64,000 bases of DNA, taken from Flavobacteriaceae bacterium. GTDB taxonomy: Bacteria; Bdellovibrionota; Bacteriovoracia; Bacteriovoracales; Bacteriovoracaceae. Positions 13,070 to 58,973 of this stretch are shown here, in pieces; within the stretch, counting starts at the first letter, position 1, and each line of letters opens with the position of its first letter. The notes under the pieces are model-generated. The model did not search any database and was not told the DNA's origin. It saw nothing but the letters and a program-made list of their open reading frames with translations. The position numbers and the translations under genes are program-made. The stretch spans positions 1,073 to 65,072 of the forward strand of contig CAXPDR010000029.1 of assembly GCA_964215955.1 (NCBI GenBank). The letters run 5' to 3'.

Positions 13070-13259
13070 GCAGATACTCTAGAGAGACTTACTCAAGTAG
13101 TAAAGATTTATTTGTAAATTCAAGTGTTTAAGTCGTTTGTTTATATTTTCTTTATTATTGTCCAGTTATACTGGCAACTCACTTATTTTTTGAACTTTAT
13201 TCGTATTAGAATTTTATTTAGGGGTCTTCTCTAAGTCCTTGAATTTAAGAGTTATGACT

Positions 13260-13287
13260 TAAAACTTATCTATAATAGTGCCGATAA
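13260..13287 (+). promoter_or_regulatory. sigma-28 (FliA)-type promoter, TAAA-N16-GCCGATAA
   Basis: TAAA at 13260-13263 and GCCGATAA at 13280-13287, followed by the AAAGGAG SD at 13298 and a start at 13304/13313. Confidence 0.55.
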
Positions 13288-13303
13288 GCTTTAAAATAAA
13301 GGA

Positions 13304-13684
13304 GTGAAATACTTGGTAATTTTAAAAACATTCTTACTCATTGGTTTAAGCCTTTTACTTTCCTGTGGAAGTGAGATTCAAGTATCACAATTTACAGAGG
13401 ATCAATCAGTTCTCGATGTGAGGGTAGAGCAACTTTCTACTCAGGCAGATCCAACGAAATCAGCTAATATTTACTTTAATGTTTATTTTTCTAATCCCAT
13501 CGAATCAAAAACTTTTGGTGCTGATGATATTATCCAAGATGGAACATCTTCTAGAATTATTTGGGATGTAATTCATGTCTCAGAGGGAAAACACTTTATT
13601 GTCATTGGTACAGGCCCAATGACTAATGGAACTTTTATTTTAAACAGTACTGACACTCCGTACATTAGATTATGGAGATGTTAA
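13304..13684 (+). CDS. lipoprotein with Ig-like surface domain, possibly the 5' part of a frameshifted gene
   Basis: Lipobox LLLSCGS. TTG 13313, 8 nt after the AAAGGAG SD, is the more likely start. The pattern ADPTKSANIYFNVYFSNPIESKTFGADDI is typical of bacterial Ig-like surface-repeat domains. A sigma-28-type promoter lies just upstream. Confidence 0.55.
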   Translation: MKYLVILKTFLLIGLSLLLSCGSEIQVSQFTEDQSVLDVRVEQLSTQADPTKSANIYFNVYFSNPIESKTFGADDIIQDGTSSRIIWDVIHVSEGKHFIVIGTGPMTNGTFILNSTDTPYIRLWRC

Positions 13685-13691
13685 TGGAGAT

Positions 13692-13889
13692 TTGGGTACA
13701 AGCTGTTCTGTTTCCGGCCTTGTGAATGTTACCGAAACAACTGGTTGTTCTTATGATGGATCTGGTGTTTGTACGGTGGGAGTCACTGGGTTGTTAAATT
13801 ATACAGGGGCCGCAAATTTTGATTTTACTATTTCTGATATTGATGGAGTATCTGAATTGGCAACAGCGAATATTACAATTAATCCTTAG
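13692..13889 (+). CDS. cadherin/Ig-like domain fragment, probably the 3' part of the preceding gene in the +1 frame
   Basis: This frame is open from 13644 (…LDYGDVNGDLGTSCS…) and ends in a typical Ig-like domain terminus, ANFDFTISDIDGVSELATANITINP. It has no signal peptide and no well-spaced SD of its own. Confidence 0.35.
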   Translation: MGTSCSVSGLVNVTETTGCSYDGSGVCTVGVTGLLNYTGAANFDFTISDIDGVSELATANITINP

Positions 13890-14301
13890 TTTTAAAACCC
13901 TTAATAGAGTTATTATAAATATCTGTGAGTTCACTAAAATAATCTCCAGATCTTAAAATGAGCTCTTTTACTTCACCTTCATCCTTTGATTCTTTGAGAG
14001 TCTTTTTTAGTTTGAATATAGGCCCAGCTATTTTATGGGTTTTAAAAATTAAAAGAACGTAGATAATGCCTAAACTTAATAAGGCAAAGAGGCTGAGGAA
14101 TATAATATAATGATTTCTAAAATTATTAAGCTTTGTTGCGATTTCATTATTTGAGACAAATTCCAAAATATCATTTGACCAGTATACAATGGATCCAATG
14201 AGGAATAAGTTTTGAATCAAAAAAATCGCCAATATGAAGAACGTAAAGTTCAGTTGAAATTTTTTATCTACTAAGACTAAAAGTCTTCTGTATGGATGCA
14301 T
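13879..14301 (-). CDS. small two-TM membrane protein with HAMP-like linker
   Basis: Two hydrophobic helices are followed by FKTHKIAGPIFKLKKTLKE, a HAMP-like amphipathic segment. It lies 11 nt downstream of the 14313-15167 gene. Confidence 0.5.
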   Translation of the reverse strand: MHPYRRLLVLVDKKFQLNFTFFILAIFLIQNLFLIGSIVYWSNDILEFVSNNEIATKLNNFRNHYIIFLSLFALLSLGIIYVLLIFKTHKIAGPIFKLKKTLKESKDEGEVKELILRSGDYFSELTDIYNNSIKGFKTKD

Positions 14302-15167: not shown

Positions 15168-15450
15168 ATATAGATCCTAGAATCATTAATATATTTGTTT
15201 TGGAATTATTCCTTACTATTTTACATTGTAATTGGGATATTTTAAATTCCAAAAATTTAGGGCATTTGTTCTTTTTAAGTCAAGAGGTGCCTTGTTTATG
15301 TGCTTTCCTTTAGGTTGTGAAGTATTTAACTATTCGCTTTTTCAAAGGTATTGGTCTGTAATACATATTTGACAGAAAAAATTGGCGAAATAATTAAGTT
15401 AAACAATAGGGGTTTATTCTGTAAATGGATAGAACTAGTCCATTTAACGT

Positions 15451-15477
15451 TAAATTTTAGTCACTTATAGCCGATAA
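15451..15477 (+). promoter_or_regulatory. sigma-28 (FliA)-type promoter, TAAA-N15-GCCGATAA
   Basis: TAAA at 15451-15454 and GCCGATAA at 15470-15477, a perfect match to the enterobacterial FliA -35/-10 core and spacing. It lies 65 nt upstream of the GLUG paralog 1 ATG. Confidence 0.65.
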
Positions 15478-15541
15478 GTCCTAGGTCAATACTTTCCTTA
15501 ATTTATAATAGAAAGGGGAAGTAAGCCCTTTAGGATATTTT

Positions 15542-18500
15542 ATGAAATTTATTAATTTTGCGTTTTTAATTTTGACTTTTAATTTTGTTTCTTGTTCTCA
15601 AGGGCCTGGAAAAACTAATGTCAAAATATCCCTGGCAGCAATAAGTGGAAGTGAAAAATTCCCTGGTGGACTTTTTCTTTATGGGAAAAATAAATCAATT
15701 CCAGATATGGGTTTTGCCAGAAAAGTAAATGCAGATGATACTCTTGAGTTAGAACTTGAAAATGGTGACTGGGGTTTTGTGGTCATGGGGTGGGACGGTT
15801 CTCAATACTATGAGGGAAATGCATTTTGTGATGCTATGGCAAAAAAACTTGATGGTGCTGAAGTCAGTCTTTCTTTGGAAGCGACTAGGGCCAAATGTAG
15901 TCCAAGATATATAAATGGTACGAATGAGCTTTACAATGGATTTTATTCTTTAAAAATTCATACTTGTGCAGGCATAAGAGATCATATTGCGAATGGAGAA
16001 CCAATTCCTTCTAACTTTAAATGTGATGGTAGCATGGATATATTTGACGGAGGAATGAAGTCTTTTAAAGTTTACTTGGCTGAGTTTATGCCAGGAGAAG
16101 GGGAGCGTTTTTCAAGTGAGTCACGTTGTTTGACTACAACAAATTCCACAACTCCTGCTTCTGTTAATCTTCCTCTTGGATCAGATAAAATAAAGACTGC
16201 TGTATTGATCAAAGGATACTCAGATAGTTCTTGTACTTCAGAAGTTAAAAAATACGTTTTTAGAGATGGTATCAAATTTCCTGAGGATGATTTTAATGCC
16301 GCAGCAGTGCTAGATAGTGTAACAAAAACGGTAAATCTTTTTGCTCATGCTAAGTTGTGTAATGAGGCGCAAAAAAACTCACCAGTTTTTGCTGCAAGCT
16401 CAGACACAGATAATGATGGCTTGAGTGATACTCATTTAATTTGTACACCTACTCAGTTTGCAAGTATAGATGGTTTTCCAACTGATAATTTTATATTAGG
16501 TGCTGATATTGATATGAGTGGGTTGAACACAATAACGAGCACATTTTCAGGTAATTTCGATGGGCAAAATTATAGATTGTACGATGGTGTACAACCCATA
16601 TTTCAAGAAGTCTCAGCAAGTGGTACTGATATAAGAATTGAAAATTTAATTATAGATAATTTTCAGATAGATTATAATTTTGAACCTTCAACGAATACAC
16701 TTGGGATACTTGCCAATCAAAGCTATCCATCAGGTGGAAAATTAGAAATAACTAATTTGTATTTTAACTCGAATAATAAAATAGAAATCTCTGTGGCTAA
16801 CGGTGGAACTATTTCAACCAATACGTATCTTGGGGGATTAATTGGAGATGTCCAAGTTCAAACTAGTGGAAAATTAGAAGTTCGTGACATAAAAATGAAT
16901 GGTTTAGTTAGGGCTTATGATGACAATATTAGAGTTGGAGGTGTGTTTGGTCGCTTTAAAAATACCAGTGGTGAAAAACCAAAAGTTGAATCAAGCCGCG
17001 TTGGAACCTCTTCAGAAAAAATGATGATTCAAGGTTATCAAAAAATCGGTGGTATCGCTGGACAGATACAAGATGCAGAAGTTGTTCAAAAAACAGCGGT
17101 TTTTGCAAAGCTTAAAGGAAAGGATTTTGTAGGTGGGATTGTTGGTGATGCACTTGATGGAACTGAAATTAGAGATGCAAAAACAGATATTGAATATGTA
17201 CCATTCGATAGCTCTAACTCAAGAGTTGGTGGTATTATTGGTGGAATCGCAGGTGATTTCTCTGTAAAAGTAGATGGGGTCATGGCAAATTTGGTTGTCC
17301 TTGAGCCTACTGGGACTAAAAAAGTAGACCAATTAGGTGGTATTATTGGTGGAAAAAATTTTGGTTCTGGAGCTGTTAATCCTTTTCAAATTTCAAATTC
17401 AAAAGCCATTGTTGATTTTAATGTTAATGGACAATCTCATGGGGGATTGGTTGGAAGTCAATCTGTTACAAATGGAACACGAGATGAAATTAGAAATTCA
17501 ATTGCTATGGGGAGCTTACTTGAATCAAGTAGGGTAACGTCGAATATAAATAAAGGTGGATTCGCAGGGGACTCAAGTAACCTTAAGATCGAAATGTCAG
17601 TTGCAAGTTTTACTAGTATTGAAGGAGACCGACAATTAGGTGGAGGGATTGGTTATAGTAATAACACAATTTTAAATGAATCCCATATCAAAGGACATGT
17701 GGAATGTTTAAAAAATACTGCTTATCTTTCGTGTGGTGGTATTACTGGTCTAAATAACGATTCATTTAATACTGGGCACTTTGAAGACCTTTATGTGGAT
17801 GTAAGTCTGAATGTTCCAAACTTTGATGTAGATGGTAATAGTGGTTGTAGTCTTCAGAAGTGTGGACGACTTGCTGGAAATAATCTTTCTTCTTATATGA
17901 GTTTTGAGAGAATTTATCTGGTACAAAGCCAAATGCTAGATATGAATGAAGCAGATATTAGTTTTAATACAGGATCAGGGAATGTGACTCCAGGTGATCA
18001 CATAGACAATTTACAAACTGATGATTCCACAACTTGTAATGGAGCCATCCTAGGAAAATTTGATAATTCTCATGGTATTTTTTCCTCTTGTGGTTTATTA
18101 TTTGAAAAGCAGTGGCGAAGCTATGGTTTTGCGGGTGAGTACCTTGCTGGGAATTGGATTGAACCGTTTGAAATCTATTCAACTGTTGAATGGAATAATA
18201 TTAAAGCCGATGCTTTCTTAGTTCAACAGACTTTTAAGCTAATGGATGATTTAGATTTTGCCAGTGGAACTTTTGAACCTATTGGGTCAATTTCCAATCC
18301 TTTTTCGGGAAGAATTATTCCGAATGGGAAGACTTTGAAAAGAATTAATTTCACAGCCGGAAATGATAATGCTGGTATCTTTAATGCCACAGGAAATGGT
18401 GCAAGTATAGGTTGGTATAATGATCCTCTTAAAATTTTTGATATGACGATTGATTGTACTTCTCAATTAAACTGTGGAGTCATTGGCCAAGCACAAGATA

Positions 18501-19220: not shown

Positions 19221-19257
19221 TATATTATCCTCAAACTAATAATTTGAGGATAATATA
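19221..19257 (+). promoter_or_regulatory. perfect 15-bp stem / 7-nt loop hairpin sequestering the metG SD and start codon
   Basis: tatattatcctcaaa (19221-19235) and tttgaggataatata (19243-19257) are exact reverse complements. The right arm contains GAGGA (19246-19250) and the A of ATG 19257. Confidence 0.6.
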
Positions 19258-20976: not shown

Positions 20977-21169
20977 AATGAGTTTAAAGACAAAGTCTGG
21001 AAGCGAATGATTATATAACTTAATAACAATTGTTTGAAAGAGCTTCCAATTAATCTGGATTAGGGTGAATTATTGTTTAAATCTAATACTGATATACTAA
21101 CGCCTTCTAGCAAATATCCTTATGAAACAAATTATTGCTTCAGTTGTTTATTTTAACTTTAAACTCATT
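20977..21169 (+). repeat. MITE-like intergenic repeat, copy A (193 bp, 13-bp perfect terminal inverted repeats)
   Basis: The TIRs are AATGAGTTTAAAG (20977-20989) and CTTTAAACTCATT (21157-21169). Four internal blocks are shared with copy B: 20984-21003, 21040-21049, 21097-21110 and 21136-21150. Confidence 0.7.
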
Positions 21170-21202
21170 AACAACATCAAAAACTGTGAGATAAATTTAG
21201 CC

Positions 21203-21796
21203 TTATTCTTCCTTGTGATAAAGGTATTGGTTTCCTTTGATATTTAAGGATTGCTTAAATTCATGGCGGGTTCTATTCCAGGTATGAACGACATGGCCGG
21301 TTTCTGAATCAATATAGGCTTCAAAGCTAAATGGCTTTCCAGCTTGATTTTTGAAACTTACTAGGACGTGTTCAAGATGTTTACCAACATTATCACTTAC
21401 TTTGATCACAGATCTTTTTAATTCAACCTTAAAGTCTTTAACTTGATTGTTAGGAATGAGTTTAAAGAAGTTTTTTTGATATTTTTCTTTCCAATCATCA
21501 TTTACCGAATTTGCAAGATAAAGGTCTTTTAAATTTTGAACTTTTCCTAAATAGATTCTTTTATTTTCTTTTTTTATTTGAACCGGGATATTTGGTACTG
21601 AGGCAATTTTTCTTGAAGCTGGTTTAACCGGATCAATATTTTCATTCTTGGTGACCACTGAACTAGAATCTTTTTTTTCTTTTACTTCATTTTTAGCAGT
21701 GTTCATCTTCTTTGAAGAAGGATTAACCAGGAGAAAAGTGCTAACTCCTATGATTAAGCTTAAAACGATAAAAATTTCTTTCTTCTTATTTTTCAT
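21203..21796 (-). CDS. membrane-anchored protein with PepSY-like C-terminal domain
   Basis: N-terminal TM helix (IFIVLSLIIGVSTFLLV). The C-terminus, HVLVSFKNQAGKPFSFEAYIDSETGHVVHTW, fits the PepSY pattern (…v.v…g…e..iD..TG.v…). Its start lies 1 nt after the upstream protease stop. Confidence 0.45.
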   Translation of the reverse strand: MKNKKKEIFIVLSLIIGVSTFLLVNPSSKKMNTAKNEVKEKKDSSSVVTKNENIDPVKPASRKIASVPNIPVQIKKENKRIYLGKVQNLKDLYLANSVNDDWKEKYQKNFFKLIPNNQVKDFKVELKRSVIKVSDNVGKHLEHVLVSFKNQAGKPFSFEAYIDSETGHVVHTWNRTRHEFKQSLNIKGNQYLYHKEE

Positions 21797-21797
21797 T

Positions 21798-24524
21798 TTA
21801 ATCTAAAACCGTAAATTGAAGGTTAATCACTTTGTATGGCTCATGTCCAATATACTCATAATCACTAAAGTCTTTTATATCTCCAGCTGATGCTCCTGCT
21901 GGAATATTATCAAAACAATCACTACAGTTAGAAAATCTCACTCTAAAGCGGCAATTAAACTTTGTTCCTGGTTCAATCCATTTATTGACTTCCATTACTA
22001 CGAGATGGCCAGAATCAAATGCAAAACCATCTTTATTCGCCTGATAAGTTTCAGACCATGTTTGTTGAGGATCAATTTTACCTAAGACACCCTGTGAAGC
22101 TCCTGGTAAAAATCTCATAAGGCATTCATTAGGATTAAAATCATCTCCTGATTTAGAAGGATTATTTAAACAGTCTGAATCTTCAAGTCCAATAGAGTAG
22201 TTTCTAAAAAAGTCTTGAGAAACCCATTTGGTTTCATTTTCATCACTGTATTGCACGAGACAAATAGGTTGGGGGGCATCTAAATCATATTTTGGAAATA
22301 CTTTATCTACACCGTCTGTTTCGGATTTATCTAATTTCTTATTTGTTTTTGAAATTGTGGCACAATTTCCAGGAGTACTGGTACTAGAATCAGTAACTCC
22401 ACCTTCGGATGAACTTGGAAAACCATCAACCATACATGGAACATGGGTTGCAACTCCACCAGTTATATCTCCGTTACTAAGTGCCGTTTTATTGCTCATT
22501 TTATTAGTATAAGTATTGGATGTACTCGTAAGTTTCATATGATCCCAGTCATTGGCCAGAAACTGAACCCCACCCATTGGAGAGTTCGAGTTATTAAATA
22601 GATTGAGTGAAACCGCTACAACTTCACCTGGGCTAATTTTTACATTTCCATTATTATATTCTGTTCCTGCAATGCCTTCCGTTGGACTTACTCTTTTTCC
22701 TTGGAAGGTTAGGTTGGTAAGTATGTTCTTCATATCGTTTTGACCATCGATAACAAAGGCAACAGCTTCCTCATCTAATTTTATAAAATCTTTAGAAATA
22801 AGAACTGATTGTTTACGATTATTTTCGTTTACAGCGGTGTTTAAAGGAATAGATTTGAGATATTTATTATTGAAAATATATCTATTATTATAAGCACTGT
22901 AGTAGGTGAGCGCGTTTGTATCAAGGTCTAATCCATTTCCTCTATCTTCATATGATCTAAATAGGAGTAATCCATAATCATCTAAAAGCTTCTCTGATGA
23001 ATCAACACTAAATTCAGGGCATAAATTATTTGATATATGGTAAATTATATTTTTACCAAAAATTCTAAAAAATCTTCGAAAGTTTGGAGGATTTACGACT
23101 TGAGTCCATAAAAAAGATTCGTCAGGATTTAAATTAGTAAAAAATAAATTCGCTAGTCCTGTATTGCTAGGATAAGTGTATTCAGAGAAGTAGTCAGAGC
23201 CCTTAGCGGTTAAGTCGCCAATCTCTGCTAGGGTTTCAGACAAAAGTAAAACGACATAATCAGTTGTTCTTTTATGGATATAATTTTTATCTGAACTTTC
23301 AAAAGAGCATCTATTTTTAAACTCTTTCGTTAGAGCGACAAGATAATGAGAAATAGTTCCTGAAGCGTAGTGAACATCTTCAACTGGCACTAAAGGGTTA
23401 CCTGGGTCATAATGAACGTGTTGTGGATAAGATAGTCTTTGCCCAGATGCTTCAGCTACATCTATTGAATGCTCTTCTTCACTTTCAGAAAGAGGACGAT
23501 ACTTAGTAATTGTAGAGTCTCCATTTTCATCTTTTGAAAGAGTTCTTAGCTTATAGAAAGCAAATTCTCCAAAGCTTGTTCTGTTATTCATATAATATGC
23601 AAAATAATCTGCGATTCCTTCGTTTATAGCTCCGGCTTCATCATAATAAATTTCCCCAAGGTCGGACTCATAATCATGGGCCGAGCTATAAGGAAGTGAG
23701 GTTCCAGGATCAATACCTTTGGTTACATTTCTTTGGTTCATCATGGTTTTGACAAAAACATGTCCCATTTCATGATAAATAATACTTGGATCTTGAACCA
23801 TTCTAAATCCAGCTGTGTCATAACCAAAACAAAGTATGTCTTCAGCAGGACTGAAATAGGCATTATATTCCAAATAACATTTTGAATAAGCCTTAAGAGT
23901 TTTTTGAATTCCTTTATCTTGAATCAAAATAGAACCAGTATCTAAAAAGTTCCACTTAGTTGCTGGTGGAATAGCCAATTCATCTTTATCAAGGTGAACA
24001 GATTTATGGACAAAACTCATTGTATCTAGGAAACGATTGAGCATTGTATTTAAATGATAAAAAGTATTTACCTGGTAGAATTCGTCCGAATTTTTATCAA
24101 AAACCCAAGACTCATTTTGATTTTGTAGGAGAGTGGTTGATGCATTATCATCGTTAAGTACCGCCAGACATTCATCATCTGTTACAGAAGTTTTTAAACT
24201 TGATTCAGATGGATTAAAAATATTTGGAAAGTATTGCTTTACTTCACAATCAGAGTGAAGGGCAGCATTGTCTGTGATAAATTGTGGTTCTAAAAAACCT
24301 GAGAAGTTTGTACTTGTGGTGTATTTACCTTTCATGGCGATAATATTGTCGGGATAAATAAGTCCTTGATTAGTACCAGCATAAACATTAGCATCTGATC
24401 TTCTTACCGATTCAGTTTGTGTGTTTTTTAAAATGTCAGTACAGGCACTACTAAGAAGAGCAATAGAACTCAAAAGAGCTATGTTTTTGTACTGTGAATA
24501 TAGTTTATTTAAACTCTTTTTCAA
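21798..24524 (-). CDS. thermolysin-like (gluzincin, M4/M36-like) zinc metalloprotease lipoprotein
   Basis: Lipobox LLSSACTD and a TTG start after an AAGGA SD. HEMGH lies at 23760-23774, followed by EAGAINEGIADYFAYYM, which resembles thermolysin ESGAINEAISDIFG (third zinc-ligand Glu). There is a large C-terminal extension. Confidence 0.7.
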   Translation of the reverse strand: MKKSLNKLYSQYKNIALLSSIALLSSACTDILKNTQTESVRRSDANVYAGTNQGLIYPDNIIAMKGKYTTSTNFSGFLEPQFITDNAALHSDCEVKQYFPNIFNPSESSLKTSVTDDECLAVLNDDNASTTLLQNQNESWVFDKNSDEFYQVNTFYHLNTMLNRFLDTMSFVHKSVHLDKDELAIPPATKWNFLDTGSILIQDKGIQKTLKAYSKCYLEYNAYFSPAEDILCFGYDTAGFRMVQDPSIIYHEMGHVFVKTMMNQRNVTKGIDPGTSLPYSSAHDYESDLGEIYYDEAGAINEGIADYFAYYMNNRTSFGEFAFYKLRTLSKDENGDSTITKYRPLSESEEEHSIDVAEASGQRLSYPQHVHYDPGNPLVPVEDVHYASGTISHYLVALTKEFKNRCSFESSDKNYIHKRTTDYVVLLLSETLAEIGDLTAKGSDYFSEYTYPSNTGLANLFFTNLNPDESFLWTQVVNPPNFRRFFRIFGKNIIYHISNNLCPEFSVDSSEKLLDDYGLLLFRSYEDRGNGLDLDTNALTYYSAYNNRYIFNNKYLKSIPLNTAVNENNRKQSVLISKDFIKLDEEAVAFVIDGQNDMKNILTNLTFQGKRVSPTEGIAGTEYNNGNVKISPGEVVAVSLNLFNNSNSPMGGVQFLANDWDHMKLTSTSNTYTNKMSNKTALSNGDITGGVATHVPCMVDGFPSSSEGGVTDSSTSTPGNCATISKTNKKLDKSETDGVDKVFPKYDLDAPQPICLVQYSDENETKWVSQDFFRNYSIGLEDSDCLNNPSKSGDDFNPNECLMRFLPGASQGVLGKIDPQQTWSETYQANKDGFAFDSGHLVVMEVNKWIEPGTKFNCRFRVRFSNCSDCFDNIPAGASAGDIKDFSDYEYIGHEPYKVINLQFTVLD

Positions 24525-24537
24525 ACTCTATCCTTGT

Positions 24538-27500
24538 TTATTGGCTCAGTCCCATAGACTGTCCCCAAACATTTCCTAGTTGTTGGAAAGTTGCTCCGTA
24601 AATATCCTTACCAACACCGTTGGCATTTACGCTATTACAAACGGCGACAGAAATTTGTCCTGCACGTTCTCTTTGTTTTTTACAATTATAAGCAGCAGCA
24701 TAGGCTTTAAGCTGTTCTTCATATTTTTCTAAGAGATCATCGTAATTATTTGGTTTAGCACTACATTCACTCATACCAAGCTCTTTTAGAAGATTTTTGT
24801 TTATAAAACTTGAGTAGTTACTTGCAGTTACTTCGGTCACTGAGTCTTTATTTTCTGTGGTACATTTAACAAAATTAGGTTTATCGTAACAAATTTTTTG
24901 AGTATCAATGGCTTCTTTAATTTTTTCTTCATCACAAAACTTTCCATCAAGTTTTGCAAGTTCTTCATATTTATTACAAGTTTTTTCACCACTTTCAAAT
25001 AGTTCTTTTGCGCTACTATTGTTACAAAAGCTTTCTGCGGATATATATTGAGATTTCTCACCTTTCATTAAAGGTAGAGTATCATCAGAAATTTCACATT
25101 TTGAATCCCATGATCTAATTTGGGCTATGGCAGCCTTATCCTGGGCGGAGGCATTTGGATTCATAGGATTAGCCGCCGCTAGTTGAATGACTTTTCCAAG
25201 TTCTGTTGCTAGTTCTTCCGTATCGACTTTGTCAGGATCTACGTTAAAGGCCTGAAGACTTCCACAAGCTCTATTTAGATTTTCATTCATTTCACTTTCT
25301 TGTTGTGCCTGCTGAGATTGAGCTTCGGCGACACCATTTAAGGCTTGATTACAATCTGCGATGACTCCTTTCCAGTATGATTTATTGTTCTTGTAATTAT
25401 TTAAATAAGTTGCTTTTTGTGCTGCAACTGAACCACCTTTTCCATTAGAACCAAAGTACTCACTTCTTTGTTTGGCCATGGCCTTAATCATTTCATTACT
25501 ATCACTAACTAGTGCGTTAAGATAAGCTTCTGGATCTTCCATCATTAAGCTCTCATCAATTCCTTTTAAATAGCTTTTCTTACTAAGCTGAAACTTAAGG
25601 TGTGGTGTTCTAAAAATTCCCCCAAGATCCATTTGAGCATCGATAGATCTTGATTGTCTTTCTAATTCCATATTTAGAGCATTCATTTCAGATTTTAAAT
25701 CTTTTACTAACTTTTTGACTTCAGTGTTATAGGCATTGGTTGCATTATACTGCTCTGTTTTTACCGCTGTGAAAACCGAATTAACTTGAGAATAACAGGC
25801 CTTCATATTAGAAGCACATTTGGTAGCAGTTCTTAAACAAAAATTTTGGCCATTAATATTTAAGGCTCCATCACAACTTTTACTAGCAACACCTGTCGTT
25901 GTATCCCAGTTACAAGTTTTTAATTCTTCTTTTATTGTTGAGTTTAATGAAGAAGCTGCAACTTTTCGAAGATTAGTCATTTCCATAGAGTATTTTTTTA
26001 ATTCATTTACTGCTTGAGCCTGAGAATAACCACTTGGATTTGAAGGATTTCTGGAGTTGAATTTTCTCTCACATTGATCCTTAAAAATACTTAAGTAACT
26101 AGATGCACGCATCGGAACTGATGCTGGAATAGTTTTATTTTCAAGAATTATTGATTGATTTGGAATAAAAACATAATTTTTAAATCTTTCCTTAGCTTCT
26201 TCTTTCTCGACAGCTTTAATCATATCGTCAATTGTTCCGCCGCTTGCTAAAGCTCTAGAGATGATCCCAGCATAGGCATTGTCCTGACCTTTTAAGTTTA
26301 TTCTTGGGTTTTTAAATTGTCTTGAGAACTTTTCAATTCCACCCATCTTTTTAGTAATATAGTCACCAGTAAGACAAGCATTTTTTTGATCGAGTTCATA
26401 TTGATCTAATTTCTTTAAAAGGTCTTTGTATGAAGTAGGGTTATCTTTTTTCTGTACACTTGCTAGGTATCTTCCTAGGGTATTTGACGAATCAGAACCA
26501 CTAGTGACTTCAGCTATATTATATTGAGTCATAAGCTTTTGTTGTTTGGACTTTTGTTCTGACTCAAAGTTTTTCAAAATTTGAGCAAGAGCTGGGTTTT
26601 TCTTTGGAAATAATTTTCCTCTGTAAACCACGCCGTCTTTGTCAGGTGAGATGGAGTTTCTATTACTCATATCTGAGGTGATATTATTCGCTAGTTGATC
26701 AATCTCTTTTTCGATTTGTTTACTTCGAGTCAAAAGGGATTGACCTGACATTCCTCTCGAATTGTCATTTATTTTATTGTACATATTATCTTGAATTGAC
26801 CTAAGTCCACCGCTTTTTCCAAGTTTTTGAAGTTCCGCACCATCGGTTAAAGAACCACATGTATTATTAGGATCTTTGTTGCCTAAAAGTAGTTGGGAGA
26901 ATTTTCCATCTTTGTGGTATTTATCAAAATCTTTTCCACCATCCAGTAGGGCACTAGTCGCTTTAACTGTGGCCACTATTGGTTCAGCTTTGACTTGAAA
27001 ATCATCTAGTAGCTTTTTTAAGTTTTTTTGGTAAGCACGAATTTGTTCTTCTCTCGCTAGGAGTTGTGTGTTTGCATTTTTAATGGCCTCATCATAACAA
27101 GTTAATCCTTGAGAGGTTTTTGTTTCGTGACCTTTTGTGGTGTAGTTTTCCAGTTCATTAAGGTTTTCTTCAGCGAGCTCCATAAGAGCGGCGGCATAAC
27201 CACCTGCAAGTTGTTGGTGATCTGTATTGCTACATTTCATTCCATCAGAAAGGGAGTTTGGTCTGGCCGGTAAAACGATACAACCTCTAAACACTCCTGG
27301 TACTTGTTGGGGGTCTACAATTTGACCTGCTAGACTTACATGAGATCTTAAACTTTCTTTGTATTGATTAATATTCCCATTATTGGCCGTTTGCATATAG
27401 CCTGATACACCTGCAGTTAGGGCATTAGTGAAATAACCTAGGTATCTGGCACCAGTTGTCCACATCGATTCTTTTCTAGAAACATCTTGTTGTGCTTGCC

Positions 27501-27585
27501 CATAGGCTAACGGTCCAAGACATAGCTCAAAAATAATGAGTAAGTTTAAAACTTGAAAAATACTTTTTAATTTTGCTCTAAGCAT
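24538..27585 (-). CDS. large secreted helical/coiled-coil protein, unknown function
   Basis: 1,015-aa ORF with a signal peptide (LLIIFELCLGPLAYGQA). The composition is long, heptad-like and rich in K/E/Q/N, with scattered Cys pairs. It is the first gene downstream of a sigma-28-type promoter. Confidence 0.6.
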   Translation of the reverse strand: MLRAKLKSIFQVLNLLIIFELCLGPLAYGQAQQDVSRKESMWTTGARYLGYFTNALTAGVSGYMQTANNGNINQYKESLRSHVSLAGQIVDPQQVPGVFRGCIVLPARPNSLSDGMKCSNTDHQQLAGGYAAALMELAEENLNELENYTTKGHETKTSQGLTCYDEAIKNANTQLLAREEQIRAYQKNLKKLLDDFQVKAEPIVATVKATSALLDGGKDFDKYHKDGKFSQLLLGNKDPNNTCGSLTDGAELQKLGKSGGLRSIQDNMYNKINDNSRGMSGQSLLTRSKQIEKEIDQLANNITSDMSNRNSISPDKDGVVYRGKLFPKKNPALAQILKNFESEQKSKQQKLMTQYNIAEVTSGSDSSNTLGRYLASVQKKDNPTSYKDLLKKLDQYELDQKNACLTGDYITKKMGGIEKFSRQFKNPRINLKGQDNAYAGIISRALASGGTIDDMIKAVEKEEAKERFKNYVFIPNQSIILENKTIPASVPMRASSYLSIFKDQCERKFNSRNPSNPSGYSQAQAVNELKKYSMEMTNLRKVAASSLNSTIKEELKTCNWDTTTGVASKSCDGALNINGQNFCLRTATKCASNMKACYSQVNSVFTAVKTEQYNATNAYNTEVKKLVKDLKSEMNALNMELERQSRSIDAQMDLGGIFRTPHLKFQLSKKSYLKGIDESLMMEDPEAYLNALVSDSNEMIKAMAKQRSEYFGSNGKGGSVAAQKATYLNNYKNNKSYWKGVIADCNQALNGVAEAQSQQAQQESEMNENLNRACGSLQAFNVDPDKVDTEELATELGKVIQLAAANPMNPNASAQDKAAIAQIRSWDSKCEISDDTLPLMKGEKSQYISAESFCNNSSAKELFESGEKTCNKYEELAKLDGKFCDEEKIKEAIDTQKICYDKPNFVKCTTENKDSVTEVTASNYSSFINKNLLKELGMSECSAKPNNYDDLLEKYEEQLKAYAAAYNCKKQRERAGQISVAVCNSVNANGVGKDIYGATFQQLGNVWGQSMGLSQ

Positions 27586-27612
27586 TCATTATCCCTTTAC
27601 AATCTCTTAGAC

Positions 27613-27639
27613 TTATCGGCTCTAACTGGGTGAAATTTA
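27613..27639 (-). promoter_or_regulatory. sigma-28 (FliA)-type promoter, TAAA-N15-GCCGATAA
   Basis: The minus strand reads TAAAtttcacccagttagaGCCGATAA. The -10 box ends 27 nt upstream of ATG 27585, with an AAAGGGA SD in between. Confidence 0.65.
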
Positions 27640-27793
27640 ACATTTAGCTAAATAAATCTTTCTTCTTTTATTATAAATTCTGGACTCAATTACTCAAAAT
27701 TAACCAAGATTTGTCCATCGAACACTTGGCATTTTGTGTCAATTAGTTAAACTAAATATATGGAATTATTTGATTTTTTATTAAAGGCACATA

Positions 27794-36737: not shown

Positions 36738-39700
36738 TCATTGTCCCACTGCAGAAGTATTTGAATCATGAGACTGAAATTCCCAATTTAACAAAAACTC
36801 ATTTCGATTATTATCATATAGTGTATCTGAAAAATCAAAAGAACTGACGTTGTCTAAGAAGTCCTGGGGATTAGAAAAATAAGCTGTAGCAAAAGAAGAA
36901 TCATCGGAGCTTGTTCCAATAATAAATGAATCTATTGCTATATTAGTAGAGCTTGTTCCGATAAATAAGCTATTTGAGCCAGAACCCCCAAAATTATTTC
37001 CATTGATAATAACGAGATTATTTTCAAAAATACTACTATCTGGAGCTGAACCTGCAATACCACCGTTTTGGCCGCCTGATCCGGCAGCAAAATTTGTTGT
37101 TTTTGTAAGATCAAAATCGATTATATTCGTTTTGTATATTGCGTCTGATGTTCCTTCGTAACCAATTAAGCCTCCTGCGTAAGATGATGTTTTACTTGTT
37201 ATAAGATCATCGATTTTTACTTTTGAATTTTCTACCCGAAAATAGGAAGAAGTATTTAATCCAACTAGGCCGCCAATATATCTAGCATCTCCAAGTATTT
37301 TTCCAGAAAACAAGCTATTTTTAATAAAGGTTATAGAACTGTTTATACCAATTAAACCTCCAGCATTAGTTGCAGCTCCTGAAGTAGTGTTTATTTCACC
37401 ATTAGTGATTCTTGCACTTATAAAGCTACTATGTGAAATTCCTGCAATAGATCCTAAATAGTCTAAGTCATGTGTGGTATTATTTAAAAGAAGTCCGTCA
37501 ACTAATAATGGAAGATCAGGGGTACCTGCTAAACTTATAAAACTTGAACTCGAGTTACCAAGGGTCGTGATAATCCCAATAGATTTTGAGTCACAGCTAT
37601 TGGCAGTCCAGATCGCATCATCTAAATTAATCGTTATATTTTTAAGTGTAAAAGGTAATCCTTCAGGATTAAAATTAGAGAGTAGGGTTCCTGTAAAGCT
37701 TGAACTTAGATTACAGCTAAGAAGTCCACTTAATGGGTCAACAAAGGCTCCAATTGGAACAAATTTTGTTGGGTCATTTTGAAAATCTATATTATCTGCA
37801 AGAGCAAACCCCTTATTCAGAAGAAATGCATCACTGTTAATTCTATTCCATTCATTTTCATTATGGATTTTAAAAGGCTCAAATAGATTTCCTAGTCTAA
37901 ATCTATTACCTCCAAATTCTGGATCATTAAACAAACCATAATCAATCCAATGTTCAAGAAAGAGCGGAACTGGGTCTGTTAAAATTGTTGAAGTTGCAAC
38001 CCAGTTAGGAAGACCAGTTTGATAACTCAGATCAGTTATATCGTCAACTAAGATGGAGCTTTTGCCTGAAACTCCACTTATAGTAGAGTAGTTACTTGAG
38101 GAGGTTTTAATTTCTGGAGCAATTGCACCACTACTTCCACCTAGAGAATAGTATCCGGCTGTGTTGACTACATTTGTTTCGATTAATGAACCAAGAATAC
38201 TTACAAATTGAACAGGTCTTGCTGGAAAAGTTTGAAGAGCATTTATATTTTCACCAATTACAAAGCCGCATTGTTTTGTCGAGCTAGCACTGTCACAGTT
38301 ATCAGCTATGACTTCAATATTGGCAATAACTTTAGAGTGCTCAACTCTTCCTGAAGTTCCGTTATAACCAGTAATTCCCCCAACGGCGAAATCGCCACCT
38401 TCACTAGTTGCATCTAAATTAAGATTTTCAATATTTGCAAAGCATTCAGAAATTAAACCTAGGTTTTTACCTGTGATTCCGCCAAGGTTATCTCCTCCTG
38501 TTAATTCTTTAAAATTAGCAATGGAAAACCTAATTACGTTTGAAGTATTTTGATTATATCCCACGAGGCCACCTCGATTGTCATTAACTAAATCAATGGG
38601 CGATACTATTTTGATTATCCCCATTGCAATTGAGTGTGTGATATTAACACCACCGAGAAATGAGTGTGTTGCTCCATCATTCATAACCCCAATGAGTCCA
38701 CCCACATTACTTCCATTAAAGTCAAAATAGACAATTGTTCCTACATTATTAATCAGATTTGCTGATGTTTCAGTTCTTCCTACTGCGCCACCTACATTAG
38801 AAAAGGTATCATCGAAGTCGATTATTGAAAAATTTGATAAACTATGATGAATCTCAGATCCTTGAGCAGTTCCAATCAGCCCTCCAATTCCATCGCATAT
38901 ATCAGTTGCTGGGGAGGTCACAGCCGGTCCTTTTGCTTTTGAACAGCTTATTGTACTAATTGACCCATTATCATCTTCTGAAAAGATTGACCTCTCAATC
39001 ACTGAGGAAATTGCTGAACCTATGATCCCTCCTAGTTGATCTGTTCCATTTAAGTCAACTTTAGTTAAGCTGGCTCCACTTATATTTGTATTATCAGCGT
39101 ATCCGATCAAACCTCCAGTTTCTGATTGATCGGAAATAATCGTGAGATTGTGAATATCAATATCATTTAATTCTACTTCTCCTGATGGATTCGTGACTTT
39201 TCCAATTAGGCCACCGGTTGGAGATGTTGAATCCCCATTAAATGAAATAATGTTTGCGCCTTGTGAATATACTTCAATATCAGATAGATTAACTATTGCT
39301 CCTGTACTTGTTGAAATTTTTCCAATGAGACCGCCTGTCGCATTTGCCCCTGTTGAATTGACACCAATAGCTAGGCTATCGATACTTATGTTATGAAAAC
39401 GTGTATTCGTTGATGTTCCTGCTGTCACTTCATTAATTAGTGCTCCTGTATAAGGACCAGTAGTAGAAATGTTCACACCTTGAATTGTGAAATTACCAAT
39501 AAATTTTTCACCAGAAAGATTGGAGAAGTTATTAATTAAAGGCTTATCTAATCCAATAATCTTTTTATTATTACCATTAAAGTTTCCTGTGAAAGATGAA
39601 ATAGTATTAAAACCGGTGGCAGTAATATTTTTTCCGAGGATGTAGTTATTTGTTCCTGTCATCATTTCAAGTTCAGCTTTATTACAAATGACATAAGGAA

Positions 39701-40580
39701 TTGTGCCTCCGTCTCCAATCTCGAAACCGACATTATTGACAGCATATGTTGGACAAAGAGGTTGTCTTATATAAAATGTATTGGTGTTAGTTGCTATATT
39801 TGCTTTAACAAAAGAACCATAGACCGTTTGAGAACCTTCATAGAATCCACTTTTGAAATCGATCTTATCCCCAGTTCCAGCACATCCTTCTTGAGAATAT
39901 GCGATAATTGACTGAGGAATTCCTTTAAATATAAGTGGTCTAACCTGAGGATTTCTTAATACATGGTGATCGTTATTACCATCTGTAATACATGTAGATT
40001 CGAATGGATTTGATCTATTTTCAAACATCCGTTCTTCATTCGAAAAATTGACATCATAAGAAACAATTTTATAACTTTTATAAACTCCAGGTGCTTCTGA
40101 GCAATCATCACCTAAAAAAATCTCATTGTCGCCTTTGGTGCAAGAGATAAACTCTGCTGGTCTTGGACTTCCACTCGCTTCGTTATATTCACCTTCATCA
40201 CTTTTGAAAGGTTCTTCTCCACAACCATCTGTACTGGGAGTTAAATTTATATCTACAGGTGAGCCATCCAATTTTATTTCACCCTCCGTAATAAAGCATT
40301 TAGGTACTCCTGCCATCGCACTAGTGCCAGCATCCCACCCAACAGCGCCAAATTCCCATTTACCGTTATCTAAATCGACTTCATAGGTAGTGGTATTTAA
40401 TAATCTTTTAGTAAAGACAACTTTAGTATCTGGATTATGACCAAGAATATAAAGTCCACCAGGAAACTCATTGGGACCAAAAGATGCACCGAAACTAATT
40501 TTGGCCGAAGTTGTCTCTGGCTTAGGTGAGCAACTAATTAAAATTAAAAATCCAAAGATAAATATTGTTAAGTTTTTCAT
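36738..40580 (-). CDS. giant GLUG-repeat surface lipoprotein (paralog 2)
   Basis: Lipobox LILISCSP when started at ATG 40580. At least 14 GGhhG repeats (ATGGLIGKI, ETGGLIGYA, NVGGLIGVM, YIGGLVGLN ...). The N-terminal domain (KISFGASFGPNEFPGGLYILGHN) and the mid-protein module (FEPFKIHNENEWNRINSDAFL) align with paralog 1. Confidence 0.75.
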   Translation of the reverse strand: MKNLTIFIFGFLILISCSPKPETTSAKISFGASFGPNEFPGGLYILGHNPDTKVVFTKRLLNTTTYEVDLDNGKWEFGAVGWDAGTSAMAGVPKCFITEGEIKLDGSPVDINLTPSTDGCGEEPFKSDEGEYNEASGSPRPAEFISCTKGDNEIFLGDDCSEAPGVYKSYKIVSYDVNFSNEERMFENRSNPFESTCITDGNNDHHVLRNPQVRPLIFKGIPQSIIAYSQEGCAGTGDKIDFKSGFYEGSQTVYGSFVKANIATNTNTFYIRQPLCPTYAVNNVGFEIGDGGTIPYVICNKAELEMMTGTNNYILGKNITATGFNTISSFTGNFNGNNKKIIGLDKPLINNFSNLSGEKFIGNFTIQGVNISTTGPYTGALINEVTAGTSTNTRFHNISIDSLAIGVNSTGANATGGLIGKISTSTGAIVNLSDIEVYSQGANIISFNGDSTSPTGGLIGKVTNPSGEVELNDIDIHNLTIISDQSETGGLIGYADNTNISGASLTKVDLNGTDQLGGIIGSAISSVIERSIFSEDDNGSISTISCSKAKGPAVTSPATDICDGIGGLIGTAQGSEIHHSLSNFSIIDFDDTFSNVGGAVGRTETSANLINNVGTIVYFDFNGSNVGGLIGVMNDGATHSFLGGVNITHSIAMGIIKIVSPIDLVNDNRGGLVGYNQNTSNVIRFSIANFKELTGGDNLGGITGKNLGLISECFANIENLNLDATSEGGDFAVGGITGYNGTSGRVEHSKVIANIEVIADNCDSASSTKQCGFVIGENINALQTFPARPVQFVSILGSLIETNVVNTAGYYSLGGSSGAIAPEIKTSSSNYSTISGVSGKSSILVDDITDLSYQTGLPNWVATSTILTDPVPLFLEHWIDYGLFNDPEFGGNRFRLGNLFEPFKIHNENEWNRINSDAFLLNKGFALADNIDFQNDPTKFVPIGAFVDPLSGLLSCNLSSSFTGTLLSNFNPEGLPFTLKNITINLDDAIWTANSCDSKSIGIITTLGNSSSSFISLAGTPDLPLLVDGLLLNNTTHDLDYLGSIAGISHSSFISARITNGEINTTSGAATNAGGLIGINSSITFIKNSLFSGKILGDARYIGGLVGLNTSSYFRVENSKVKIDDLITSKTSSYAGGLIGYEGTSDAIYKTNIIDFDLTKTTNFAAGSGGQNGGIAGSAPDSSIFENNLVIINGNNFGGSGSNSLFIGTSSTNIAIDSFIIGTSSDDSSFATAYFSNPQDFLDNVSSFDFSDTLYDNNRNEFLLNWEFQSHDSNTSAVGQ

Positions 40581-40763
40581 AATATTCCTATCGGTCAAAA
40601 ACGACTTTTTCTAAATTATAAAGGCTTTGTTTATTGTTATGAGATTTCATGAGTTTAGGGAGTCCGAGAGGATATATTTTAGAAATCCTGACCAAAAGAT
40701 TTGGCATATTTTAATATTTCTAGATATCTAAACATGACAACTCATTTGGACGATAAAGGCTCC

Positions 40764-50200: not shown

Positions 50201-50435
50201 CTTGATTAACCGTCCCCTCTGCGTGGGGATGAAGCTTAAAGCCAAAGTAAACAACTGAAGCACTATACTGTGTTTTAAACCGATTCGACTAGAAGGCGTT
50301 AGGGGATTTATTATTTTTTGTGGGAAAAAGGAAAATAAAAAGTCTCGGGTCTTTGGAAGCTCTTGAAATTATTGTTACAAAAACAAATTAATCTTTCACT
50401 TCCAGACTTTGTCTTTAAGATCATCCCCAATCAAG
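50201..50435 (-). repeat. MITE-like intergenic repeat, copy B (inverted relative to copy A)
   Basis: The TIRs are TGGGGATGAAGCTTAAAG (50224-50241) and CTTTAAGATCATCCCCA (50413-50429), with outer cttgatt/aatcaag ends. Blocks 50399-50418 (20/20 identical to copy A), 50353-50362, 50289-50302 and 50248-50262 match copy A in reverse complement. Confidence 0.7.
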
Positions 50436-50900: not shown

Positions 50901-51003
50901 ATTTACCTACTTTAAAAGGCTTTTTAGCACCTTTTAACAAGGAAGTCTTAACTTTCTTAAGTATTTGTAAAATCTACTGATTTTGATGGTTTATGAAATG
51001 GAT

Positions 51004-51030
51004 TAAATTAAATTTTTCCAATTCCGATAA
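51004..51030 (+). promoter_or_regulatory. sigma-28 (FliA)-type promoter, TAAA-N15-TCCGATAA
   Basis: TAAA at 51004-51007 and TCCGATAA at 51023-51030, followed by a GATAAGGAG SD and ATG 51059. Confidence 0.55.
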
Positions 51031-51058
51031 GTTAAATGGATAGATAAGGAGTCATTTA

Positions 51059-51301
51059 ATGAAGATATTATTAGTTTCTTTGTTGTTATCACCAGTCGTT
51101 TTTGGAAAAGCAGTAGATTTGTCTGAGTTTAATGAGAAGCTTCATCAAAATATGGATACTGTCTTAGAGCAGAACCCGCAAGTTTATGAGAAAAAGTCTT
51201 TTGGTAGAGCACCTGCTTCTGTTCCAAGTGAGAGTCCTGAAAACCTAACAGAAAAACTAGATCATTTTGATGAGCAGATTGATGGGCAAAAATCTTGGTA
51301 A
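51059..51301 (+). CDS. small secreted acidic protein
   Basis: 80-aa ORF with signal peptide MKILLVSLLLSPVVFG and SD GATAAGGAG. A sigma-28-type promoter lies upstream and a strong terminator downstream. Confidence 0.55.
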   Translation: MKILLVSLLLSPVVFGKAVDLSEFNEKLHQNMDTVLEQNPQVYEKKSFGRAPASVPSESPENLTEKLDHFDEQIDGQKSW

Positions 51302-58723: not shown

Positions 58724-58973
58724 AGTAACCTATCGGAAATTTTATAAGAAAATTAAAATGATTTAATTAATTGCCATTTTTATTTGTCCTAAATAAATAG
58801 TGCTCGAGCTTGTAAGTCATTGAATTCTTTATGTCGAATAAGATGCCTAAATCTTAATATTAGATATGGAGTATCCTAAAGCTAGAAAAATTAACATAGT
58901 GTAAAACTTGACTTCAGTCGTACGTAGCCTCCAGAACAAGTTAATTGAGTATAATCTTAACAGAGGAAGATGT

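Follow-up and report, generated by a model that had tools for sequence, protein, structure and literature searches.

Genomic context of the sites

The stretch of DNA considered here (the window) comprises 64,000 nucleotides (nt) of contig CAXPDR010000029.1 (assembly GCA_964215955.1), and all coordinates are given relative to it. It carries a set of intergenic sites resembling promoters of sigma-28, the FliA-class flagellar sigma factor, in front of genes for secreted proteins and lipoproteins (Table 1). The G+C content of the window is 34%, and Pfam scans of its predicted proteins revealed housekeeping and metabolic genes together with many proteins without any family, and no flagellar or chemotaxis domain, as an earlier sequence-only reading of the window had proposed. 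The encoded MetRS is 58-82% identical to those of Halobacteriovorax marinus and of metagenome-assembled genomes (MAGs) labelled Bacteriovoracaceae, Halobacteriovoraceae or Oligoflexia, the next matches after this clade being Bacteroidota with at most 38% identity, and MAG GCA_035092465.1 has a contig that encodes an identical MetRS. TypA relatives give the same taxonomic picture. By MetRS and TypA alike, the closest relatives are thus H. marinus and Bacteriovoracaceae/Halobacteriovoraceae MAGs, and the window is therefore assigned to an uncultured Bdellovibrio-and-like organism (BALO) of the Bacteriovorax/Halobacteriovorax branch.

Related loci fetched from this clade or from other strains carry the labels L001-L137. 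Their gene order is conserved in L003-L015 and reads uvrD-(GLUG gene)-metG-p197-p908-p1015, followed by a divergent FHA gene and then bacA. Here, p1015 denotes a secreted, Cys-rich and probably coiled-coil protein of 1015 amino acids (aa), p908 a lipoprotein of 908 aa with an HEMGH zinc-protease motif and a weak match to thermolysin-like M4 peptidases, and p197 a membrane-anchored protein of 197 aa. The three genes had previously been read as one operon, a call supported by the short gaps between them and by the conserved order.

Table 1 Features of the window associated with sigma-28-type promoter sites.
Feature	Coordinates	Strand	Remarks
Sigma-28-type promoter of small lipoprotein gene	13259..13288	+	TTAAAACT-N13-GCCGATAAG; one additional spacer base
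Small lipoprotein gene	13313..13684	+	lipobox LLSC; strain-specific; may be frameshifted into open reading frame (ORF) 13692-13889
Sigma-28-type promoter of 1217-aa GLUG-family gene	15450..15478	+	-35 TTAAATTT, 12-nt spacer, -10 GCCGATAAG
GLUG-family lipoprotein gene, 1217 aa	15542..19195	+	lipobox FVSC; mosaic-hypervariable between strains
Palindromic hairpin between GLUG stop codon and metG start	19221..19257	.	17-bp stem; likely terminator
Operon p1015-p908-p197	21203..27585	-	gene gaps of 13 and 1 nt
Sigma-28-type promoter of three-gene operon	27612..27640	-	TTAAATTT-N12-GCCGATAAG; position weight matrix (PWM) score 24.1
Tandem sigma-70-type promoter	27670..27697	-	TTGAGT-N16-TATAAT; 10/12 matches; same orientation as sigma-28-type site
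GLUG lipoprotein paralogue gene	36738..40580	-	1286 aa; 1280 aa from true start ATG 40580; lipobox LISC; PF07581
Candidate sigma-28-type promoter of GLUG paralogue	40589..40620	-	-10 ACCGATAG, weak -35; PWM score 21.4
Sigma-28-type promoter of 80-aa secreted-protein gene	51003..51031	+	TTAAATTA-N12-TCCGATAAG
80-aa secreted-protein gene, conserved BALO family	51059..51301	+	signal peptide
Candidate sigma-28-type promoter of 681-aa secreted-protein gene	58731..58756	-	TTAATTTT-N12-TCCGATA then GG; PWM score 16.6

Four sigma-28-type sites and their departure from chance

The bipartite sigma-28 consensus, a -35 TAAA and a -10 GCCGATAA placed 15 ± 1 nt apart, occurs perfectly at three sites and near-perfectly at a fourth. 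TAAA-N16-GCCGATAA is present at 13260-13287(+) and TAAA-N15-GCCGATAA at both 15451-15477(+) and 27639-27613(-), while 51004-51030(+) holds TAAA-N15-TCCGATAA, which differs from GCCGATAA by one G-to-T change. All four are intergenic and point towards the next gene, the octamer being separated from the start codon by 16 nt at the 13260 site, 64 nt at 15451, 27 nt at 27613 and 28 nt at 51004, with a Shine-Dalgarno-like AGGA or AAGGAG inside every gap. The coordinates, strands and orientation given for these sites by the sequence-only reading could thus be verified. Taken over 25 sites, the consensus becomes T-T-A-A-A-t-t ... CCGATAAG, most commonly spaced as TAAA-N16-CCGATA, and the sequence in the window matches the extended -35 TAAAnTTT as well as the full octamer of the sigma-28 consensus.

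Such matches are far rarer in dinucleotide-preserving shuffles of the window, of which 100 were made for the full motif. TAAA-N14-17-GCCGATAA is found three times against 0.05 expected, none of the 100 shuffles containing three or more, and GCCGATAA by itself is found four times against 0.80, close to the earlier estimate of about one octamer in 64 kb. The form common to all four sites, TAAA-N15-17-CCGATAAG, gives 4 matches against 0.01 expected, this pattern having been picked after the sites had been seen.

The same motif is strongly biased in position and orientation across the clade, as tested with a simple purpose-made ORF caller on 60 clade loci (762 kb) with 622 upstream regions. Strict TAAA-N15-17-CCGATA occurs 26 times in the sense and twice in the antisense orientation, and a relaxed form 42 times against 4. 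The bias towards gene starts that the sequence-only reading had required genome-wide is strong in clade DNA, and its judgement that the sites are not due to chance agrees with the shuffles, these orientation tests and the conservation described below. Within the window and 14 metG loci (310 kb), 9 of 12 strict matches are intergenic, a compartment making up ~6% of the sequence, and all nine are correctly oriented, whereas in Bacteroidota control loci (1.13 Mb) 5 of 21 strict matches are intergenic and two of them oriented. When the hexamers of upstream regions were compared for strand asymmetry in an unbiased test, CCGATA came first (42 sense vs 8 antisense, p = 6e-7), followed by CGATAA, both above the Shine-Dalgarno hexamer AAGGAG, and no hexamer in the Bacteroidota control shows a comparable asymmetry. 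Sense CCGATA is present in ~10% (42/413) of clade upstream regions, a share drawn from two syntenic neighbourhoods in which many sites are orthologous; the motif-bearing sites belong to 15 protein families, of which four comprise 7-19 members each.

An ungapped PWM, trained solely on sites outside the window and listed down to 12 bits, places the operon site (27608-27645, 24.1 bits) and the site of the 1217-aa GLUG-family gene (15445-15482, 22.4 bits) first and second. Ranks three and four are taken by two further sites, 40620-40589(-) at 21.4 bits and 58756-58731(-) at 16.6 bits; sites 13260 and 51004 score below the cut-off of this ungapped matrix, and matches in coding regions reach 13.4 bits at most. 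Some other matches were set aside. The TAAA-N16-CCGATA at 14535-14510(-) is treated as chance, as it lies within a 284-aa ORF, 209 nt from the next start, and scores low with the PWM. A fourth exact GCCGATAA at 31007-31000(-) is probably chance too, being antisense in the 3' end of a bacA-like gene and lacking TAAA at the right spacing; a TAAG stands 18 nt upstream of its CCGATA core, an antisense or read-in promoter being the other possibility. Finally, a family of small HTH_3 regulators is matched by the relaxed pattern in relatives, but the orthologue in the window (62902) has CTGGAAAA in place of CCGAAA, and the family was therefore not counted as a sigma-28 target.

Conservation of the boxes in related genomes

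Every orthologous upstream region retains a CCGA(T/A)A box and, 15-17 nt upstream of it, a T(T)AA(A)TT box. This was seen in 8 of 8 orthologues of p1015, in 6 of 6 orthologues of the GLUG lipoprotein and in 10 of 10 checked orthologues of the 80-aa protein. In the last group, whose genes lie beside typA, a CCGAT(A/C/G) box stands 20-36 nt before the start in all ten, and in a wider scan 19 members of the 80-aa family carried the motif. The boxes of the GLUG gene promoter are kept upstream of its orthologues in L004, L005, L006, L010 and L015 and also in strains L136 and L137, and strains with a 76%-identical GLUG allele retain TTAAATTTTAGCTACTTAAAGCCGATAA upstream of the gene. In a MAFFT alignment (A1) of seven p1015 upstream regions with a mean column identity of 61%, CCGA.AA never varies and the AA.TT of the -35 is conserved. 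The p1015 proteins themselves are 22-37% identical between relatives where MetRS is 59-82% identical; at such divergence, unconstrained intergenic DNA should be scrambled, yet the boxes are kept, a pattern indicative of purifying selection on both boxes relative to the surrounding non-coding DNA. Across sites, the spacing between the boxes is fixed (TAAA-N16-CCGATA ± 1) while the distance to the start codon (8-65 nt) and the spacer sequence vary, and the element therefore behaves like a promoter rather than an RNA element.

Products of the downstream genes

The first genes downstream of the six sites all encode proteins with a signal peptide or lipobox, in line with the earlier description of the targets as non-flagellar secreted proteins and lipoproteins. 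The same is true for most of the 15 protein families found downstream of the motif in the clade. A crude predictor classed 19 of the 26 clade genes with the motif as signal-like, compared with 227 of the 598 genes without it (p = 4e-4); an enrichment upstream of signal-peptide or lipobox genes, suggested as a check by the sequence-only reading, is hence present in the clade loci. Sequence searches of Pfam, NCBIfam and PDB for a function of the targets returned only the weak M4 peptidase match and the GLUG motif, and no product matches a flagellar family in Pfam or NCBIfam.

The GLUG lipoproteins

The gene at 15542 had been called a GLUG lipoprotein gene, and this family assignment stands by paralogy: while Pfam detects no GLUG motif in the 1217-aa protein itself, the protein is a full-length paralogue (E = 2e-58) of the 1286-aa protein encoded at 36738-40580(-), which does match PF07581 (GLUG). 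A search of 5.8 billion proteins gave 14 homologues of the 1217-aa protein, none of them named. As the 17-bp-stem hairpin divides the gene from metG, its sigma-28 transcript is probably monocistronic and isolated from metG.

The gene is mosaic between strains of the same species (the window compared with L001, L136 and L137), the flanking 12.8 kb being 99.5% identical at the nt level. Its promoter, 5' end and last 1 kb are 97-100% identical between strains, whereas the internal segments at ~16050-16500 and ~17100-18150 show 37-79% nt identity, and three alleles were recorded with 100, 76 and 75% aa identity. The 64-nt leader contains a 6-bp GC-rich hairpin, AAAGGG-N8-CCCTTT, at 15512-15531(+), which abuts the Shine-Dalgarno AGGA and is not obviously conserved in L005 or L136. 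A TATAAT in the same leader (15503-15508) has no convincing -35 box and is not claimed as a promoter.

The p1015-p908-p197 operon and its tandem promoters

A sigma-70-type promoter precedes the sigma-28 -35 box of this operon by ~30 nt. All seven aligned orthologous regions share its TATAAT unchanged, and five of them also have a TTG(G/A)AG -35. Sigma-70-like matches are no commoner in the window than in shuffled sequence; since such matches are not enriched in this AT-rich DNA, it is the conservation of this promoter that makes it credible. The operon is thus probably read by both holoenzymes and not limited to a sigma-28 phase. A conserved sigma-70-type promoter, TTGGCA-N16-TAAACT at 27726-27753(+), also precedes the divergent gene for an FHA-domain membrane protein, its GCCAAGT and TATATTTAGTTTA being conserved in 6 of 7 aligned relatives; this brings the conserved promoter-like elements of the 208-nt divergent region to three.

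Other promoter-gene pairs

The lipoprotein gene downstream of the 13260 site had been given a GTG start at 13304. A lipoprotein gene is indeed present, but its start is more likely TTG 13313, because AAGGAG directly abuts GTG 13304. The gene lies in a variable spot and no orthologue is available among the relatives. Between uvrD and a gene for a 140-aa membrane protein (13070-13900), the window has this gene followed, in another frame, by a 65-aa ORF (13692-13889) that may be its frameshifted continuation, and L136 (223-1330) has a 297-aa Cys-rich basic protein of transposase-like appearance at the same spot. More distant relatives have the genes of neither, and in some cases the GLUG gene is missing as well.

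The 80-aa secreted protein belongs to a family found beside typA in many BALO metagenome contigs and without match in Pfam or NCBIfam. In the aligned members (A2), R-x-P-A-S never varies and one phenylalanine hardly does, mostly as part of F-N (FNEKL in the window); they also have a C-terminal Q-x-G-x-x-x-W, the terminal W being present in most members.

The sites at 40620-40589(-) and 58756-58731(-), which are weaker and absent from the list of the sequence-only reading, probably bring the sigma-28-type promoters from four to six. At the former, the -10 ends 8 nt before ATG 40580, and ACCGATAG is kept in the orthologues L090 and L104 and not in L083 (2/3). At the latter, the -10 ends 7 nt before GTG 58723, and no orthologue of the 681-aa gene was available. 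Such short distances suggest leaderless or nearly leaderless mRNAs at the two sites. More generally, a CCGATAG box stands 7-9 nt before the start of several GLUG-family genes and of the 681-aa gene (40580-40594, 58723-58736; L090, L015), which suggests that these transcripts, too, are leaderless or nearly so; in two of these cases the start codon is GTG, which would be unusual for leaderless translation.

Apart from these pairs, the window contains two copies of a ~190-nt intergenic element, at 20978-21198(+) and 50233-50424(-), both between convergent gene ends and 69% identical overall, with the near-identical blocks TTAAAGACAAAGTCTGGAAG, AAGAGCTTCCAA, CTAACGCCTTCTAG and TGCTTCAGTTGTTTA. The element has no match in Rfam, and blastn found it in none of the fetched relatives; a small RNA and a miniature mobile element are both conceivable.

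Probable sigma-28 promoters of a proposed exported-protein regulon

Taken together, the sites are very probably functional sigma-28 (FliA-class) promoters of an uncultured Bacteriovoracaceae/Halobacteriovoraceae predator. Wherever sequence analysis could put the sequence-only interpretation to the test, it was borne out. RNA polymerase carrying a flagellar-type sigma factor would recognise the -35 T-T-A-A-A-t-t and, 11-12 nt beyond this box, the extended -10 (g/a)CCGATAAG, and would start transcription a few bases downstream of the -10. The resulting mRNAs would have short leaders and encode lineage-specific exported proteins, namely the two GLUG-repeat lipoproteins, the products of the p1015/p908/p197 operon, the 80-aa secreted protein and the small lipoprotein, with the 681-aa secreted protein as a probable further target. 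By analogy with Bdellovibrio bacteriovorus, FliA would be the sigma factor used, the transcription starts would lie as described, and the target genes would most likely be switched on together with the flagellum in the free-swimming attack phase. The operon at 27585 would probably be expressed outside the attack phase too, from its sigma-70-type promoter.

Several observations weigh against this interpretation. Neither the window nor any fetched clade locus contains fliA, flgM or a flagellar gene, and tblastn searches of the fetched clade loci with flagellin, CheW and MotA as queries were negative throughout. A search of a paper library found no Halobacteriovorax transcriptome study. Many of the counted sites are orthologous and involve about 15 families, and the sense and antisense counts therefore exaggerate how many independent events took place. 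At the two extra sites the -35 is weak, and these sites are less secure because their -10 overlaps a possible Shine-Dalgarno sequence (CCGATAGGA), an overlap that could account for part of their conservation. Finally, given its conserved tandem sigma-70-type promoter, the operon need not rely on sigma-28 for its expression.

It is unlikely, though the most plausible of the alternatives, that the sigma-28 promoters are real and the genes belong to the flagellar programme proper rather than to a separate attack or prey-contact surface regulon, encoding, for example, components or modifiers of the membrane sheath of the BALO flagellum or an envelope remodelling coupled to flagellum assembly. In favour of this, the motif has the form of classical flagellar class-3 promoters, every product is exported or lipid-anchored, as expected of sheath or envelope components, and sigma-D of Bacillus subtilis drives secreted autolysin genes within its motility regulon. 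Yet no product matches a flagellar family in the databases searched, and the GLUG lipoproteins are hypervariable between strains, so that contact with prey or environment fits better than a structural role; moreover, the FliA regulon of Bdellovibrio extends well past motility (PMC3627812). A reader other than FliA is much less probable still, be it another alternative sigma factor acting on the conserved bipartite element, a transcription factor binding there or a 5'-leader RNA element. In its favour, BALO genomes are reported to hold ~7 sigma factors (PMC13147790), and the -10 overlaps a possible ribosome-binding site at two sites. Against this stand the fixed spacing of the boxes beside variable start distances and spacer sequences, and the match to every defining position of the sigma-28 consensus, including TAAAnTTT and the octamer. 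In addition, the consensus sequences of extracytoplasmic function (ECF) sigma factors, sigma-54 and sigma-32 are quite unlike the motif. A known RNA element was rejected, as Rfam shows no RNA family and there is no tRNA gene in the window.

That the matches reflect chance or base composition, or were spread as copies by a dispersed repeat or a mobile element, has next to no probability. The low G+C content of the genome would favour such an origin, as would the sigma-70-like matches, which are no commoner than in shuffles, but the shuffles, in which the full motif is hardly ever found, the 26:2 orientation bias of the strict motif and the conservation of the boxes across orthologues (A1) all oppose it, and no repeat family was found that links the four sites to one another. 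Functional sigma-28 promoters of genes for exported proteins thus remain the preferred reading.

Comparison with known sigma-28 regulons and biological meaning

The closest known system is the FliA attack-phase regulon of B. bacteriovorus HD100. There, 92 of the 140 mapped attack-phase promoters contain the consensus TTAAG-N16-CCGATA, and FliA drives about two thirds of such promoters, including those of surface-protein and protease genes (PMC3627812); the sequence-only reading had correctly cited this study (Karunker et al. 2013) for a FliA-like motif dominating attack-phase promoters. FliA is an essential factor of Bdellovibrio and, in an Escherichia coli reporter assay, switches on the TAD pilus operon; several other BALOs carry a putative FliA site 22-26 nt ahead of the flp1 ATG (Avidan et al. 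2017, PMC5430801). In addition, FliA has been reported in all Bdellovibrionota strains compared (PMC13147790), and H. marinus possesses a complete motility gene set (PMC3526173). The promoters described here resemble those of HD100 in motif and spacing (TTAAA-N16-CCGATA here), in their occurrence in an obligate-predator lineage of Bdellovibrionota, in their non-flagellar targets, which in HD100 are surface proteins, proteases and uncharacterised exported proteins, and in their short distance to the start codon. They differ in belonging to another class of the phylum, the Bacteriovorax/Halobacteriovorax group, and in having lineage-specific targets without family annotation and with very few homologues, one of which also has a conserved tandem sigma-70-type promoter.

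Enterobacterial class-3 flagellar promoters follow the FliA consensus TAAAGTTT-N11-GCCGATAA (refs 24, 26 of PMC3627812), which is near-identical to the motif described here, including the extended -35 TAAAtTTt, the full GCCGATAA being present at three sites in the window. The enterobacterial FliA regulon is essentially confined to genes for flagellin, the motor and chemotaxis and takes up ~1% of the genome (PMC12622784), whereas no target in the window is flagellar. More distant parallels exist as well, although the phyla are unrelated and the target families different. From promoters of the TAAA-N15-GCCGATAT/A type, the sigma-28-family factors of B. subtilis (sigma-D) and Chlamydia (ref 25 of PMC3627812) drive non-flagellar genes, which encode secreted autolysins in the former and belong to late development in the latter, an organism without flagella. 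All that can be drawn from these parallels is that a cell-surface or developmental programme can come to use sigma-28.

The promoters in the window reveal no new regulatory principle. They would represent an ordinary sigma-28 promoter mechanism recruited to exported non-flagellar proteins, as in Bdellovibrio, with attack-phase timing suggested by analogy; such recruitment has been described before in Bdellovibrio, with hints of it in other BALOs. The advance is modest and lies in the family-wide conservation in a sister class, extending the Bdellovibrio regulatory pattern, in a set of conserved, unannotated exported families linked to sigma-28, in the tandem sigma-70/sigma-28 arrangement and in the strain-level hypervariability of one target. 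It could further be speculated, with the balance leaning slightly against it, that both predatory classes of Bdellovibrionota, and not Bdellovibrio alone, inherited from a common ancestor the use of the flagellar sigma factor to drive surface proteins globally, that in the Bacteriovorax lineage this factor controls a conserved exported core of the typA-linked 80-aa protein, the metG-linked operon and the GLUG lipoproteins, and that the hypervariable GLUG proteins are attack-phase prey-contact adhesins under diversifying selection. If the promoters are FliA-dependent, they would support the idea that FliA had already taken on the regulation of the life cycle when the two BALO classes diverged. 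The hypervariable GLUG lipoproteins, the operon with the protease-like lipoprotein and the small secreted protein are candidates for prey recognition or entry, and, given the same dependence on FliA, the motif would offer a cheap sequence-only marker of the probable attack-phase surface proteome in uncultured marine predators of the Bacteriovorax group.

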